Origin: a virus
Lineage: Duplodnaviria; Heunggongvirae; Uroviricota; Caudoviricetes
Virus record (IMG/VR): IMGVR_UViG_638341082_000011
Coordinates: 1-7,786 of that record
Strand: one strand, 5' to 3'
DNA length: 7,786 nt
Numbering within the stretch: the first letter of the stretch is position 1; every line of letters begins with the position of its first letter. A program made the position numbers and the translations under genes. This document shows, one piece after another, positions 1,963-7,380 of the stretch. The notes beneath the pieces are model-generated. The model saw nothing but the letters and a program-made list of their open reading frames with translations. It ran no database searches and had not been told where the DNA came from.

Positions 1963-4434
1963 TTAAAAATCAGCCTGATTCGGAATCAGTTTTTGCCAGA
2001 TAGCTGAAACGTATTTTGCCTGGTAACGGGCGTCATCAAGTGCATTATGGCGCTCACCTTCGAATGGAATAGCCGTTCTGGCATCGAAGTCTATGGCTTT
2101 TCCCAGCTCAACGATTGTGCGTACATCGCGATCGTTGTAGTAACGCCACGGGCAGGGGATCCCCTGCCGTTCGTATGAACGGCGCAAAATCGTGTTGTCG
2201 AAGTTGGCTCCATTTCCCCAGACCTGAACAAAAAATTCACCGGAGTTTTCGTCGATAAATTCCCGCAATTGTAACAGTGCATCATCTAACGGGATTTCAT
2301 CGGTCATAATGGCAGATTGCGCTTCGCGTGATTGCTTAAGCCACCATTTAATGGTGTCCCGATCAATGACTCCGCCAGCAGTTTCCAGATCGATAGTCTT
2401 ACTAAATTCCGGTCCCATATCTCCGGTTTGCGGATCGAAAAATATTGCACCTATTGAGATAATCGGGGCATCAGGATTTTTTCCCATGGTTTCAAGGTCG
2501 ATCATTAGATGGTCACACGTCCTGCTGGCGGATGTGATTTCGTGATGACTGTTCACCTTAATTGAGTGATCTGCCGTCTCGCCAGTTTCATTATCGCTAT
2601 TGTGATGCTGATTGCCGCCAGTGTTCTTCTTGTTTGGATGTTCAGCGCCTTCCATTTCCTCCGGATCATCTTCCTGAACTTCAACCTGATACTCTTCATC
2701 GAATGTTTCCTGGTATGTTGCGTCGCCCATCACCGCGCCACAATCAGGGCAGTTGCCGCCGCCGGTCTGACCGCAGGCGGTGCAGATCTTTTCCGGTTCC
2801 TGTTGCACTACTGGTTCAGGTTGTTTCGTTTCTGGCTCGTTTTGTAACGCATTTGGGCTGTTTTGTTCCGCTTTCTGGCCGTTCTGTTCCGTTTCTTGCT
2901 GGTTCTGGTTCACAGTATCGCGGGTCTGGATCCCCTTAACCCATTTCGGATCATTCGGGTCGCTAATCCCTTCAATAAATTCACCACGTGATGCAGCAAG
3001 CAACTTATCGGCGTCAGGCTGGCTGATATTGGCTGCCTGCATAATTTTGTTTACTTCGTCAGCGGTAACTTTTACCGGTTCTGGCTGTGCGGTCGTGTCA
3101 GATGCACCAGTATTTTGTTGTGAACCTGAGTATGTACTGTTTTTGCGGGCGAAATATTCTTCTTTCGTGATTTCAGTAGCCCCGGCAGCCAGTGCCTTAT
3201 CCAGACCAGAAAGTTTGTTTGCGCGACCGTATTTTTCGCCATCCTTGTCGGTGAAGAGGAAGTAGAACGGCCCCTCACGCTCTACAGATGGTTCGACTTC
3301 CACTTTGCATTCGGTTTTTTCGTTGTCCGGGATTGCCGTTTCCACTGCATCAGTTTCTGGTACTGGCGACGAGAGAGTATCAGTTGCGATCTGATTTCTT
3401 CCTTCATCTTCAAACACGCCCTTTGTAGTCAGGTATTCAGTAATGTATTTGTTCAGTGCCACAGGGTCTTTGTGAATGTCGATCGGACGCTCGCGGACAA
3501 GGCCAAAAATAGTCTGGCGGTCGTAGCGAAGGGCATCAGGCTGTTTGCGCATTGATGCTGAGATACGCTTCCAGTCTTCGCGGTCGTTGTTGATAACTTC
3601 ATTTTTTGCCCAGCGATGGATGCTGCCGTCAATGTTTCCGGCATCAATGTCACCAGGCCACAGAGCGTAGGCCAGTTCATCATCCAGTGTTTTCCATGTC
3701 TGCTTATATTCGCGACGAATGACTGCAGTGACAGGGGGGATATTTTCTGCTGAGTTTTCAGTGTGCTGTCGGTTGACTCTGGCGCGGGCGAGATCAACAG
3801 CAGACGTGTATTTTCCGGTTTCCTTGCGTTCACCTTCGCGACGTTTTTTCCAGATGCGCATCTCTGCCTGAATTTCGGGCCATTTAGCTCCAGGCTTACA
3901 TTTATGCTTAACCCACCCGATGGCATGCAGCTTAAGTTCCGGATACATGGCGTTAACTTCTGGCATTTTCATCAACGCTTCAACGATATGTCCGTCGAAT
4001 GTTGCCATGTCTTCCTGCAACAGTTCCTGTGCACTAATCACCATATCAACGGTGATGTTTTCACATGTGTCGAACTTAACCATGACAGCGTTCTGCACTT
4101 CAGGGGCCAGCTTGTCAAAAGTGACGTTCATCGGATCTGATTCAGTCTCAACCGGGACAAAGGAAGCTGACTCCTCATCCCAGCGGTTTTCCTGCATATA
4201 TTCAGCATCCCAGGAATCGAGGGCAGGGCGGGGTATACCGGGTTTATCCTCGCAAACAAGAAATTTATAAGCGCAGTCCTGAGCAGCCGGATATTGCTCC
4301 AGGAATTGCCAGGTAAATTTGGCACGGGCGCGGCGTTCGTCGCCAGCTTCAATGGCAGTGGCTACAGCGACTGCACCTTCTTCCTTTATTGCCTGTTCGT
4401 CCGGAATAGCGGCGCAAATAAAGACTTTACTCAT
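1963..4434 (-). CDS. Large multidomain prophage protein (823 aa) with C-terminal DnaQ-like DEDDh 3'-5' exonuclease domain, central Cys4 zinc-ribbon motif and acidic/Q-rich linkers; N-terminal about 550 aa of unrecognised function
   Basis: ATG at 4434 with GAGG upstream, TAA at 1963-1965. Last about 183 aa (nt about 1966-2514) carry three exonuclease motifs: Exo I IDLETMG, Exo II GNGANFDNTIL, Exo III HNALDDARYQAKY. CTACGQTGGGNCPDCG (nt about 2734-2784) is a CxxC-x9-CxxC zinc ribbon. Segment KLLAASRGEFIEGISDPNDPKWVKGIQTRD resembles, from memory only, the central part of RecE/exodeoxyribonuclease VIII-annotated prophage proteins. Sits where K-12 Qin has the ydfE pseudogene. Confidence 0.85.
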   Translation of the reverse strand: MSKVFICAAIPDEQAIKEEGAVAVATAIEAGDERRARAKFTWQFLEQYPAAQDCAYKFLVCEDKPGIPRPALDSWDAEYMQENRWDEESASFVPVETESDPMNVTFDKLAPEVQNAVMVKFDTCENITVDMVISAQELLQEDMATFDGHIVEALMKMPEVNAMYPELKLHAIGWVKHKCKPGAKWPEIQAEMRIWKKRREGERKETGKYTSAVDLARARVNRQHTENSAENIPPVTAVIRREYKQTWKTLDDELAYALWPGDIDAGNIDGSIHRWAKNEVINNDREDWKRISASMRKQPDALRYDRQTIFGLVRERPIDIHKDPVALNKYITEYLTTKGVFEDEGRNQIATDTLSSPVPETDAVETAIPDNEKTECKVEVEPSVEREGPFYFLFTDKDGEKYGRANKLSGLDKALAAGATEITKEEYFARKNSTYSGSQQNTGASDTTAQPEPVKVTADEVNKIMQAANISQPDADKLLAASRGEFIEGISDPNDPKWVKGIQTRDTVNQNQQETEQNGQKAEQNSPNALQNEPETKQPEPVVQQEPEKICTACGQTGGGNCPDCGAVMGDATYQETFDEEYQVEVQEDDPEEMEGAEHPNKKNTGGNQHHNSDNETGETADHSIKVNSHHEITSASRTCDHLMIDLETMGKNPDAPIISIGAIFFDPQTGDMGPEFSKTIDLETAGGVIDRDTIKWWLKQSREAQSAIMTDEIPLDDALLQLREFIDENSGEFFVQVWGNGANFDNTILRRSYERQGIPCPWRYYNDRDVRTIVELGKAIDFDARTAIPFEGERHNALDDARYQAKYVSAIWQKLIPNQADF

Positions 4435-4514
4435 GTTGTTTTAACCTCATTACAGATTTAAGGGTGAACAAATCCCTGCCATTGCTGGCATATAAAAATG
4501 AAACCGGATATTAA

Positions 4515-4718
4515 TTACGGTGCTGTTTTAAGTCCTGCCGGGATTTCGTTATTATCCATGTGAATAACTTTATCGACCGGATAACAGTTACCGGGAATTT
4601 TCTGTTCCACTGCGGCAACCATGCATTCTTTCATTGAGCCGTATACGCCAGTAACCATGTCAACCGGTTCACCGGAAACAAGAAAAACCGTCAGAACAAG
4701 TGCAAATGTAGTATTCAT
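4515..4718 (-). CDS. ydfD: YdfD-like DUF1482 small protein with N-terminal hydrophobic segment (67 aa); Qin YdfD is reported as a lysis protein
   Basis: ATG at 4718 with AGGA 8 nt upstream. Start overlaps the dicB-like stop in an ATGA junction (4715-4718). Translation MNTTFALVLTVFLVSGEP...QKIPGNCYPVDKVIH...IPAGL matches my recollection of Qin YdfD. Synteny dicB then ydfD is as in K-12. Confidence 0.8.
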   Translation of the reverse strand: MNTTFALVLTVFLVSGEPVDMVTGVYGSMKECMVAAVEQKIPGNCYPVDKVIHMDNNEIPAGLKTAP

Positions 4719-4903
4719 TGCCAGCATCCTTTTTGCATCAGGCGTAAACGGGCCAGCATTGAAACAATGCATATTTTATCCAATAGCTCCCGTTCTTGTT
4801 TCCTCTTGTTAATGGCATCTTCAGTAAATACTGGGTTACTGATAGTGACACCAATTTCAAAACAACCTTCAGACGTATTAACGTTTGGTAATAACGTTTT
4901 CAT
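4715..4903 (-). CDS. dicB: DicB-like cell division inhibitor (62 aa)
   Basis: ATG at 4903 with GAGGG 7 nt upstream; the longer GTG-initiated frame from 5008 has no RBS. Translation MKTLLPNVNTSEGCFEIGVTISNPVFTEDAINKRKQERELL.KICIVSMLARLRLM.KGC.Q is near-identical to E. coli K-12 DicB as I recall it. Sits downstream of a DicF-like element. Confidence 0.85.
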   Translation of the reverse strand: MKTLLPNVNTSEGCFEIGVTISNPVFTEDAINKRKQERELLDKICIVSMLARLRLMQKGCWQ

Positions 4904-5072
4904 TATCGCACCCTCAACAATGAATTTTGTGATGCGGCGCCTGGTGCCTCCAGGTGACGTTAACCAGTTAACAATTAACGCCGGATACAGAGAACCCATC
5001 CATAACACTGTTTTTGGTTTTAACTGTTCCGCGTGCGCTCAGCCGCATTCACCGCATCACAAAATTCACTTT

Positions 5073-5130
5073 AAAAAGGGCAGCAGAGCAGTCACGGAGT
5101 AAAACTGATACCACCAAACGTCACCAGAAA
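5073..5130 (-). ncRNA. dicF: DicF-like small regulatory RNA with 3' intrinsic terminator
   Basis: Minus strand reads TTTCTGGTGACGTTTGGTGGTATCAGTTTTACTCCGTGACTGCTCTGCTGCCCTTTTT. This matches the recalled K-12 DicF except GGCGG->GGTGG and CCGCC->CTGCC, both keeping the stem as G-U wobble pairs. Inner stem CAGU/ACUG present, T-run at 5073-5077. Lies about 170 nt upstream of dicB. Ends are approximate. Confidence 0.7.
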
Positions 5131-5465
5131 ATTGATAACAGAGGGCGTTGCAGCGGGGTTGTCACTTAAGCGTATGGTCAACCTGGCAACCCGGTGTCTC
5201 AATGGGGGAGGAATAACCCCGCCATACTTACCGCCGCGCCATTTCGCGGAGTGCCACAACCGGAAGCGCACGGTCGAATTAAATTTAACGACACCGTACA
5301 GTGAGACGAACTTCGCCGTGCGCTTTCGCGTTATGCCCTGGCTTTTCAGGGATATATCCTTTCAGTAAACTGTCAGTACCGGATTCTTATCCGTGTCCGG
5401 CGCACGACCACACGTGGCAGCGTGTTGGTCTCCATTTTTAACCCAGAACCTCAATGGAGGATAAA

Positions 5466-5675
5466 ATGCCAAACAAAAAAAGAAATCCGCTTATTGAAAA
5501 ACAGATTGAATGCCTGGTAAATCAACTCAGGCAATCAGGGTTATTAAAAACTCATTCAGAGTTGAGGCTCACAGAATCAGCATTCGATGATAAATTAAAT
5601 AATGTCCTTTATAATGGCATTATTGATTTTAATCGTTCAGTTGGTCGCCTCGGCCCTGCTGGTGTTTCCTTATAA
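5466..5675 (+). CDS. Hypothetical 69-aa protein, AT-rich, convergent with and abutting the 216-aa gene
   Basis: ATG at 5466 preceded by GGAGG (5456-5460) with 5-nt spacer; the upstream in-frame ATG at 5454 lies inside the RBS. Translation MPNKKRNPLIEKQIECLVNQLRQSGLL... has no recognised family. Visibly more AT-rich than its surroundings. Stop TAA (5673-5675) directly abuts the minus-strand stop (5676-5678). May not be a real gene. Confidence 0.4.
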   Translation: MPNKKRNPLIEKQIECLVNQLRQSGLLKTHSELRLTESAFDDKLNNVLYNGIIDFNRSVGRLGPAGVSL

Positions 5676-6326
5676 TTACCAGTCAATCCAGAGCGGACCG
5701 TGTTCAGCGTAAATATAACTGTACACATCCAGATTATATTTGTGGTCTGTTAAGAACAGGCCGCAAATACATGCCGAAGCTTCCAGGGCAGCGGCTCTGT
5801 TACTGAATAACCATGTGGCAACATTCCAGCGTTTTTCTGCATCCCAGTCTTTCTCAAGGCCTGATACCATGAAGAAACCGTTAGTGTTGCCATCAAATAA
5901 TTCTGTTTCCAGATTTTTAAGCAATGCCTGATGGACTCTTGCCAGGTATTCCGCCGGAATTTCGCCACGAATTCTGATGAGATTGTCATAAACAAACATG
6001 TTCCCCGCATATGGCGATTTTTCTTTCTTGTTTTTTAAACCAGCATCATGAGCAAACTGATCAATTTCTTCTTCCGTTGGTTTCGTATTGATGTTTTGCG
6101 CTGTCGTTTCTGCAATTTTATTTGCCACACTATCTGAGTCGTGTTTATTTACAGACGCACAGAAATACAATCCGGTAAACGCATCGCGCACATTACGAGC
6201 CATATTATCAGTGTCTTTTTTCGTTACCGATTCCAATGCAAGTTCGTTCAGACGATGACGAAGTGTGTGTGCTGCAATCTCCTGGATTGAAGTAGGTAAA
6301 TCTTTAAATTCCATCGTCAACCTCAT
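5676..6326 (-). CDS. Hypothetical protein (216 aa, or 212 aa from the internal start), function unknown; cargo gene in the early-left operon
   Basis: Long intact ORF. ATG at 6326 overlaps the ydfA-like stop by 1 nt (TGATG); an alternative ATG at 6314 (MEFKD...) has GAGG 6 nt upstream. No recognisable catalytic or family motif by inspection. Occupies the position held by ydfB/ydfC in K-12 Qin. Confidence 0.75.
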   Translation of the reverse strand: MRLTMEFKDLPTSIQEIAAHTLRHRLNELALESVTKKDTDNMARNVRDAFTGLYFCASVNKHDSDSVANKIAETTAQNINTKPTEEEIDQFAHDAGLKNKKEKSPYAGNMFVYDNLIRIRGEIPAEYLARVHQALLKNLETELFDGNTNGFFMVSGLEKDWDAEKRWNVATWLFSNRAAALEASACICGLFLTDHKYNLDVYSYIYAEHGPLWIDW

Positions 6327-6478
6327 CAGTCAGAGTTTCTTGCTAACCAGCGATGCGCGCCAGCTTCGGTTTTAAACGTTTTGCTTTTGGTATACGTCAT
6401 CGCGGTGAACGTGCCGTCCTGGTTGGGAAACACGCCGTACACCAGAGATTCGTTGTTACCAAGATCGATAGTATCCAT
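6326..6478 (-). CDS. ydfA: YdfA-like small protein (50 aa)
   Basis: ATG at 6478 with GAGG 5 nt upstream. The 85-aa frame in the ORF track starts at a TTG (6583) that is the -35 of the proposed promoter. Size and position right after the dicA-like repressor match K-12 YdfA (51 aa); the sequence match is from memory. Confidence 0.6.
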   Translation of the reverse strand: MDTIDLGNNESLVYGVFPNQDGTFTAMTYTKSKTFKTEAGAHRWLARNSD

Positions 6479-6554: not shown

Positions 6555-6583
6555 AATTTAGTTTTCTCATGACTGTTGGTCAA
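6555..6583 (-). promoter_or_regulatory. Candidate leftward early promoter (pL-like) for the ydfA/dicB operon
   Basis: On the minus strand: -35 TTGACC (6583->6578), 17-bp spacer, -10 TAAATT (6560->6555). An operator copy overlaps the spacer and -10. Predicted by eye only. Confidence 0.45.
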
Positions 6584-6667: not shown

Positions 6668-7075
6668 TTACTGATGTTTGTTACGTTTGCGAGCTTCTAG
6701 TAGCTCGGTGAATAGGCGATTAAAATTCTCAACGCGGGCACGGAGTTCGCTGATTTGTGCTTGCTGCTCTGATTTTGGAAGTGCGCGATACAATCGCAAC
6801 ATCTCCAACTCATCTTCCGATAAGTCTAAGGCGCTGTTGAGTGCAACTGGTGGATCTGGTGTTTTATCCTCGTCACCAAACAGTATCCAAGTTGGTGAAC
6901 ATTGCAATACCTCAGCCAGGCGATGCAAATTTTGCCCACGCGGGGCTGTATGGTCGCTTTCCCATAGTGAAATTGATGAGCCAGATACGCCAGCGGCTTT
7001 GCTTAAATCGTTTTGACTTAAACCAACCTGTTTGCGTCTTTCTCTAATTCGTTGACCTAAAGTTTTCTCGTTCAT
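6668..7075 (-). CDS. dicA: DicA-like HTH (XRE-family) prophage repressor, 135 aa
   Basis: ATG at 7075, TAA at 6668-6670. N-terminal HTH (LGQRIRERRKQVGLSQNDLSKAAGVSGSSISLWE). Segment LQCSPTWILFGDEDK and overall length match my recollection of K-12 DicA. Divergent from a Cro-like gene with operators on both sides. Confidence 0.9.
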   Translation of the reverse strand: MNEKTLGQRIRERRKQVGLSQNDLSKAAGVSGSSISLWESDHTAPRGQNLHRLAEVLQCSPTWILFGDEDKTPDPPVALNSALDLSEDELEMLRLYRALPKSEQQAQISELRARVENFNRLFTELLEARKRNKHQ

Positions 7076-7152: not shown

Positions 7153-7380
7153 ATGTTTAAATCAGACGTAATTAATTTTTATGGGACGAAAGCCAAAGTA
7201 GCGAAAGCTGCTGGTGTTGATCCATCTGCTGTTTCTCAATGGGGGGAACTGGTTCCTGAAGGTCGCGCGATGCGCCTGCAAGAGGCATCTGGCGGGGAGC
7301 TTCAGTATGATCCCAAAGTTTATGACGAATATCGTAAGACGAAGCGGGCGGGGCGGTTGAACAATGAAAATCACCCCTGA
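7153..7380 (+). CDS. dicC: DicC/YdaS-like Cro-type HTH regulator (75 aa)
   Basis: ATG at 7153 preceded by GGAGGGG (7144-7150); the TTG at 7126 lies inside the operator and is unlikely. HTH segment GTKAKVAKAAGVDPSAVSQW. Divergent from the repressor. Confidence 0.85.
   Translation: MFKSDVINFYGTKAKVAKAAGVDPSAVSQWGELVPEGRAMRLQEASGGELQYDPKVYDEYRKTKRAGRLNNENHP

Follow-up and report, generated by a model that had tools for sequence, protein, structure and literature searches.

The window analysed here is a stretch of 7,786 nt from a viral (Caudoviricetes) record, and it is 100% identical to positions 1245836-1253622 of the Escherichia coli AST85 chromosome, adjoining potC. Its minus strand carries, in order, a DicA-like repressor gene, ydfA, a gene for a 212-residue protein, dicF, dicB, a DUF1482 gene, an exonuclease gene, xis and int. 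RefSeq annotation and Pfam scans place these genes in a dicBF-type operon of a lambdoid prophage with a DicA/DicC-type switch. The helix-turn-helix repressor (6668..7075, minus strand) shares 56% identity with K-12 DicA and matches HTH_3 at 60.9 bits. Divergent from its gene, on the plus strand, is a Cro/DicC-like regulator (7153..7380; PF14549 P22_Cro, 64 bits, and RefSeq annotation). A promoter-like site (6555..6583, minus strand; 9 of 12 matches in a consensus scan) occupies the gap between the repressor gene and ydfA. Its position is comparable with that of K-12 dicBp, but it is a consensus match only, from a scan in which sites were not in excess of those in shuffled sequence.

The first operon gene is ydfA-like (DUF1391; 6326..6478, minus strand; PF07151, 100.6 bits, and RefSeq annotation), and it is followed by the hypothetical 212-residue gene (5676..6314, minus strand), which has no Pfam match and stands in place of ydfB-ydfC. 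A long untranslated stretch, in which dicF sits, then separates this gene from dicB. A 69-residue open reading frame is annotated on the opposite strand inside the leader before dicF (5466-5675, plus strand). The dicB gene (4715..4903, minus strand), which encodes a protein division inhibitor, is intact: its product matches PF05358 along its full length of 62 residues (132.1 bits; cut-off 27) and is identical to K-12 DicB at 59 of 62 residues, and RefSeq annotates dicB in the identical locus. Thus, the claim of a first-pass annotation of this DNA that the prophage encodes two division inhibitors, dicF and dicB, is borne out, although this is the classical, published state of the dicBF operon and not a new one (PMC5069750). 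A DUF1482 gene follows at the position of K-12 ydfD (4515..4718, minus strand; PF07358, 81.5 bits, and RefSeq annotation), and the module continues with an exonuclease of 823 residues, an excisionase and an integrase.

The dicF gene and its two base changes

The only Rfam family above threshold in the window is RF00039 (DicF), which matches the minus strand at 5078-5129 with 66.9 bits (gathering score 48; E 1.9e-13). The match is full-length (model positions 1-52 of 52) and no non-canonical pairs are flagged. K-12 dicF scores 76.7 bits, and the window allele is thus 9.8 bits lower. Together with the K-12 alignment, the match places the 53-nt mature sRNA at 5078..5130, and read on the minus strand from 5130 to 5078 its sequence is UUUCUGGUGACGUUUGGUGGUAUCAGUUUUACUCCGUGACUGCUCUGCUGCCC, followed by UUUUU. 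This U5 run (5073..5077, minus strand) is the same as in K-12 and forms the intrinsic terminator tail 3′ of the hairpin; a role for termination in setting the 3′ end of 53-nt DicF has been described (PMC5069750, PMC9438474).

The reference for comparison was the annotated dicF of K-12 MG1655 (NC_000913.3, 1649382-1649434, 53 nt). An ungapped alignment gives 51 identities in 53 positions and exactly two differences. Numbering the RNA so that nt n corresponds to window coordinate 5131-n, these are U18 (5113), which changes GGCGG to GGUGG and the 18-50 pair from C-G to U.G, and U49 (5082), which changes CCGCC to CUGCC and the 19-49 pair from G-C to G.U. The two altered pairs are adjacent in the outer stem and form a tandem 5′-UG-3′/3′-GU-5′. 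The first-pass annotation had described a minus-strand DicF-like RNA with two outer-stem changes from G-C to G-U, and had named an Rfam covariance scan and a K-12 alignment as checks. The K-12 sequence it used agrees with the annotated MG1655 gene, the two substitutions are exactly as it described them, the scan returned a significant full-length match, and the alignment leaves the pairing of the stem intact; operon context agrees with the identification. The locus is dicF, a known RNA in a known operon; the allele here, U18/U49, is rare and derived.

This call supplies a feature that is absent from the RefSeq annotation of the carrier genomes. No dicF feature is present in RefSeq for any of 30 genomes sampled across the ranking, and among the records examined only MG1655 has an ncRNA feature for it. 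The gene is systematically unannotated in RefSeq E. coli genomes.

The predicted terminator hairpin is retained in a weaker form

The Rfam consensus structure and the minimum-free-energy and centroid folds agree on a terminator hairpin at 5079..5115 (minus strand). The Rfam consensus and the predicted folds give it an outer stem of nt 16-22 with nt 46-52 (5115-5109 with 5085-5079) and an inner stem of nt 24-28 with nt 38-42 (5107-5103 with 5093-5089). The shape is common to the window and K-12: seven outer pairs, a bulge, five inner pairs and a 9-nt loop. All 12 predicted pairs are standard or wobble pairs in the window allele, each with a probability of at least 0.82; the range is 0.82-0.96 in the 53-, 58- and 72-nt forms alike, compared with 0.85-0.99 in K-12.

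The cost of the two changes lies in stability. Predicted minimum free energy is -11.1 kcal/mol for the window and -15.9 kcal/mol for K-12, a loss of ∼4.8 kcal/mol, and the single mutants fall between them (U49 only, -13.7; U18 only, -14.0 kcal/mol). Against shuffled sequence the window hairpin has a z-score of -0.47 and the K-12 hairpin one of -1.98, and the window hairpin by itself is not stabler than shuffled sequence. On these models, the stem of the window allele is retained but measurably weaker than that of K-12. A simple promoter/terminator scan was discarded as a test of the terminator: it misses the DicF hairpin in K-12 too, on account of the interrupted stem and long loop, and is hence uninformative.

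Leader, processing and alternative helices

A conserved leader lies 5′ of dicF (5131..5267, minus strand), as seen in the identity profile and in the diversity across 109 copies. It corresponds to the extra 137 nt of the 190-nt, RNase III-generated precursor that has been published alongside the 53-nt species (bioRxiv 10.1101/2023.04.14.536235), with its end at 5267 placed by arithmetic only. Within it, the 50 nt of 5136-5185, RNase E 5′-end site included, are 100% identical to K-12. A consensus fold of 87 copies predicts a long-range helix on the minus strand between 5266-5272 and 5031-5037 (CGUGCGC/GCGCACG) that encloses the dicF region; the arithmetic 5′ end of the precursor falls inside its 5266-5272 arm.

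Duplex energies point to complements of DicF on both sides of the gene. The upstream segment (5210..5240, minus strand) is complementary to DicF nt 30-53 and is a candidate for an alternative helix, with a duplex energy for 5240-5210 of -26.8 kcal/mol (K-12, -29.0); no other 31-nt segment of the minus strand is as extreme an outlier. The downstream segment (5028..5046, minus strand), which also appears in the read-through fold, is complementary to nt 33-51, with a duplex energy for 5046-5028 of -26.0 kcal/mol (K-12, -28.2). Both complements stand more than four standard deviations from the mean of the 31-nt segments, and both are present in K-12 too. The upstream helix dominates the predicted 190-nt fold and, because it outcompetes the terminator hairpin, terminator probability there is low, 0.01 in the window compared with 0.26 in K-12. 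If the folds are right, termination or processing could differ from K-12. The downstream helix is the minimum-free-energy hairpin of the read-through RNA, and we infer that it is a candidate substrate of the RNase III cut that yields a 72-nt form of DicF (PMC5069750). More generally, both flanking segments may act as RNase III substrates or as an antiterminator-like element, in rivalry with the terminator hairpin.

Since nt 49 faces a G in the ftsZ duplex and in both alternative helices, C49U is the only substitution at this position that keeps every predicted partner paired. A C at window position 5054 (U in K-12) was considered as a downstream compensation for U49 and rejected, as the corresponding nt 77 is in a predicted loop, unpaired.

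The spacer between dicF and dicB also gives a sub-threshold Rfam match to STnc100 (4926-5066, minus strand; 34 bits against a gathering score of 47, E 1.3e-4). Scores are similarly weak for K-12 (34.4 bits) and strain 504237 (33.5 bits), and the spacer may be distantly related to this Salmonella sRNA candidate.

Predicted target pairing

In K-12, genetic tests have confirmed that the 3′ region of DicF pairs with the ftsZ ribosome-binding site (PMC5069750). With K-12 ftsZ as the target, nt 24-53 are predicted to pair with positions -29 to +1, covering the Shine-Dalgarno sequence, and the target region is itself nearly invariant (-50 to +30 identical in 5327 of 5425 genomes). The partner of nt 49 is ftsZ G-25, a C-G pair in K-12 and a U.G wobble in the window. 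The predicted hybrid energy is accordingly -26.2 kcal/mol in the window and -27.9 kcal/mol in K-12. The cost of opening nt 24-53 of the sRNA is 10.7 kcal/mol in the window against 14.5 kcal/mol in K-12, and the predicted net interaction is -15.5 against -13.4 kcal/mol. Full-length ftsZ duplexes come to -39.5 (window) and -38.5 (K-12). The predicted manX duplex has its core at nt 36-48 and leaves nt 49 unpaired. Full-length duplexes with xylR, pykA and manX were set aside as unrealistically long, and the xylR and pykA partners of nt 18 and nt 49 shift between alleles. These predictions suggest no loss of target recognition in the U18/U49 allele.

Wobble pairs and conservation as evidence of function

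The first-pass annotation had also taken the two wobbles as a sign of structural constraint, and this argument did not hold up well. A C→U change opposite G gives G.U automatically, and a count on the 12-pair structure finds that 14 of the 24 transitions possible in the stem still leave a pair. With 29 of the 53 positions unpaired, roughly half or more of random substitution pairs (0.5-0.66, counted from the structure) would break no pair; if both substitutions fall in the stem, 0.15-0.34 would both retain pairing. Pairwise against K-12, 2 of the 53 dicF nt differ, compared with 3 of ∼108 nt in the adjoining flanks, and dicF is no better conserved than its surroundings.

No two-sided compensatory change occurs among 17 distinct DicF alleles, a family too shallow for this comparison to speak for or against the stem, in which five one-sided types of change keep a pair and three cells break one (G16A, G50A and G38U). 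Covariation statistics for these alleles equal their shuffled values, and RNAalifold on 87 distinct precursor sequences found one-sided changes only. When one genome per species was scanned with a loop-region pattern, clear true-dicF hosts appeared only in E. coli, Shigella and E. ruysiae, plus three more dicF copies on contigs labelled Veillonella, Collinsella and Proteobacteria metagenome-assembled genomes. The other 40-odd pattern matches were rejected as chance matches, and the scan thus gave no distant dicF homologues usable for covariation. The wobble pattern is at most a weak sign of structural constraint.

A better case for function comes from conservation on a larger scale. Over a 1.7-kb block containing dicF the window is 91.5% identical to K-12, and identity is unevenly spread, at 96-100% from ∼5260 to 4790 and 58-90% outside. 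Among 109 distinct copies, drawn from viral contigs and E. coli genomes, a conserved island at ∼5260-5020 shows 0.01-0.06 mean pairwise differences per site, compared with 0.2-0.6 in the flanks, and diversity reaches its minimum over dicF (0.012-0.015 differences per site). The copies were collected with a pattern fixing nt 22-42, and those positions are conserved by construction; the remainder of the island is not. In size the island corresponds to the published 190-nt precursor plus the downstream spacer. This family-wide island probably marks a functional element and is better evidence of one than the wobbles, though it could partly reflect recent modular exchange and not purifying selection.

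Two related prophages depart from the usual arrangement. The prophage of strain 504237 (NZ_CP025862.1) has integrase, exonuclease and dicB in common with the window, to which it is 95% identical over 81% of its length, but positions 4000-5300 of its locus give no DicF match even at E≤1, and its dicF remnant is the last ∼15 nt (CCGCCCCTTTTAAAG). With dicF so reduced and dicB present, dicF can evidently be lost while dicB is kept. In strain E66 (NZ_CM173951.1; 4585-4916 of its locus), the prophage at the same site has a truncated dicB followed by a Rac-type kil; kil is another FtsZ-directed division inhibitor, and the E66 dicF carries C43G. The division-inhibitor cargo of the module varies.

Frequency and descent of the allele

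Allele frequencies were counted with exact 59-mers (the RNA plus its tail) against 5426 complete E. coli genomes, a record being counted when its best place matched exactly. The K-12 allele C18/C49 accounts for 3055 records, the window allele U18/U49 for 24 and a U49-only allele for 18. The U18-only intermediate has no exact match in these genomes and none in IMG/VR. A genome may hold up to seven dicF-like places, and the window allele is the only such place in 12 of its 24 carrier records, AST85 included, with a second place in the other 12. All 24 carriers are human isolates or lack host information. In IMG/VR, U18 occurs in six contigs, all of which also have U49 and match the window module at 96-99.9% identity; no contig there has U49 without U18. 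The double allele is absent from all 22 GenBank phage records having dicF.

Five carriers were examined in detail, AST85 (identical to the window) and four fetched loci. All five share the module of DUF1391, 212-residue gene, dicF, dicB, DUF1482, exonuclease, xis and int, and all have both the 212-residue gene and the 69-residue reading frame opposite the leader. Their immunity regions vary and encode an HTH repressor, a LexA-family protein or RacR. Of the relatives that lack the allele, the E24377A prophage is the nearest, at 95.5% identity around dicF. Because this relative keeps C18/C49, the U18/U49 state is derived within the module and marks one module lineage.

The U49-only allele has a different background. 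It lies in a Qin-like, nearly K-12 setting from which the window flanks differ by ∼8%, as at positions 4001-4059 of the K_EC180 locus (NZ_CP062203.1), where C49U stands alone. Given this background, C49U most simply arose twice independently, or else was carried over by a short conversion tract, as far as the flanks can tell. All 12 of the U49-only carriers among those listed come from pigs.

Interpretation and rival explanations

We consider it highly probable that this locus is the dicF of a lambdoid prophage beside potC, present as a rare derived allele. Its two C→U transitions are probably neutral or close to neutral. The biology of K-12 DicF, an Hfq-dependent sRNA, is well described (PMC5069750, PMC9438474, bioRxiv 10.1101/2023.04.14.536235), and by analogy we infer that this allele is expressed, processed and bound by Hfq and that it inhibits division. 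As in K-12, the DicA-like repressor would control the operon promoter, RNase III and RNase E would shorten the transcript at its 5′ end, and the hairpin and U5 run would end transcription to leave a 53-nt RNA. Nucleotides 24-53 would then base-pair with ftsZ from -29 to +1, across its ribosome-binding site, and prevent its translation, and DicB, encoded downstream, would inhibit division independently at the protein level. U18 and U49 are predicted to keep every pair as G.U, at a cost of ∼4.8 kcal/mol in hairpin stability, and to leave the ftsZ pairing intact.

The weaker hairpin could instead mark a drifting, partly impaired copy, in which slightly deleterious transitions accumulate under relaxed selection and which yields less 53-nt DicF, more read-through and poorer repression of ftsZ. 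Hairpin strength sets the efficiency of sRNA terminators (Morita et al. 2017, PMC5558911), and the drop of 4.8 kcal/mol in stability, the z-score of -0.47, the 9.8-bit lower Rfam score and the confinement of the allele to just 24 of 5426 genomes would all fit impairment. The natural pair-breaking alleles G16A, G50A and G38U indicate that selection on the stem is not absolute, and the strain 504237 prophage has lost dicF outright and retains dicB. A second dicF-like place could cover the function in 12 of the 24 carriers, but in the other 12 this dicF is the sole one. All pairs are kept, the rest of the RNA and its processing sites are unchanged, the predicted ftsZ pairing is not weaker overall, and the allele has persisted through up to 4% flank divergence and swaps of the immunity region; impairment is thus unlikely in our estimation. 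The same loss of stability might be adaptive, with the tandem G.U weakening the terminator in favour of read-through (toward dicB or the 72-nt form) or making the 3′ seed easier to open. Predicted opening energy for nt 24-53 does fall from 14.5 to 10.7, the net ftsZ interaction improves by ∼2 kcal/mol, the competing helices lose only ∼2.2 kcal/mol where the terminator loses 4.8, and terminator probability drops from 0.26 to 0.01 in the 190-nt context. These are thermodynamic predictions throughout, however, with no signature of selection. C49U has arisen a second time, on the K-12-like Qin background of 18 genomes, yet C→T is the commonest spontaneous change and its recurrence is unsurprising; the double allele is confined to one lineage, and E. 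coli genomes and IMG/VR contain no U18-only intermediate. Adaptive tuning of this kind strikes us as very improbable.

Finally, the locus might be dicF-like through recent common descent alone, with no functional RNA expressed in this prophage. The operon is normally repressed (bioRxiv 10.1101/2023.04.14.536235), RefSeq annotates nothing at the dicF position in carrier genomes, and pairwise against K-12 the adjacent 100 nt are at least as well conserved as dicF. Across 109 copies, however, the conserved island is centred on dicF and its leader amid diverged flanking genes, the covariance-model match is full-length, and the operon is intact, with repressor, promoter-like site, ydfA and dicB. 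Mere similarity is, to our minds, scarcely credible, and we return to a dicF with neutral or nearly neutral changes as the reading that the evidence favours.

The significance of this allele beyond correct annotation is slight, as it is a minor variant of a known RNA. Work on DicF and the dicBF operon goes back to 1989, and how widely they occur in E. coli prophages is already on record. One further idea, drawn from thermodynamic prediction and rated by us as rather improbable, is that the tandem G.U makes a naturally ‘leaky’ DicF terminator and shifts the operon toward dicB read-through. Stabler sRNA terminator hairpins give higher termination efficiency and a shorter U-tail (PMC5558911), and a weaker one might correspondingly let more transcription through into dicB. 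If so, the balance between the RNA and protein inhibitors would be altered in this prophage lineage from human isolates. Three members of an allele series (C18/C49, C18/U49 and U18/U49) exist in nature and only U18/C49 needs making; the four together could test how terminator-stem strength relates to the DicF and DicB output of the operon.

Comparison with known systems

The closest well-studied counterpart is the DicF of the K-12 Qin cryptic prophage (b1574; RF00039), which has the same fold, U5 tail, leader and 5′ processing site, lies in the same place in the untranslated stretch before dicB, and has the same predicted ftsZ pairing. The window differs from it in the U18/U49 tandem G.U, with a hairpin 4.8 kcal/mol weaker and an Rfam score 9.8 bits lower. 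Its surroundings differ as well: the 212-residue gene replaces ydfB-ydfC, DUF1482 replaces ydfD, the repressor is 56% identical to DicA, and the prophage adjoins potC with int, xis and exonuclease genes that look intact. The U49-only allele of K_EC180 and other pig-derived E. coli, O139:H1 included, shares the C49→U change and the G19.U49 wobble, but it keeps C18 and sits in a Qin-like background unlike that of the window. The E24377A prophage has the same potC-side module (DUF1391, 212-residue gene, dicF, dicB, exonuclease, xis, int) and is 95.5% identical across dicF and its flanks (∼330 nt on the upstream side, ∼420 nt on the downstream side), but unlike the window its dicF has C18/C49 plus A10G. 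Multiple dicF copies are a feature of the prophages of enterohaemorrhagic E. coli, and the E. coli genomes searched here likewise show up to seven matching places.
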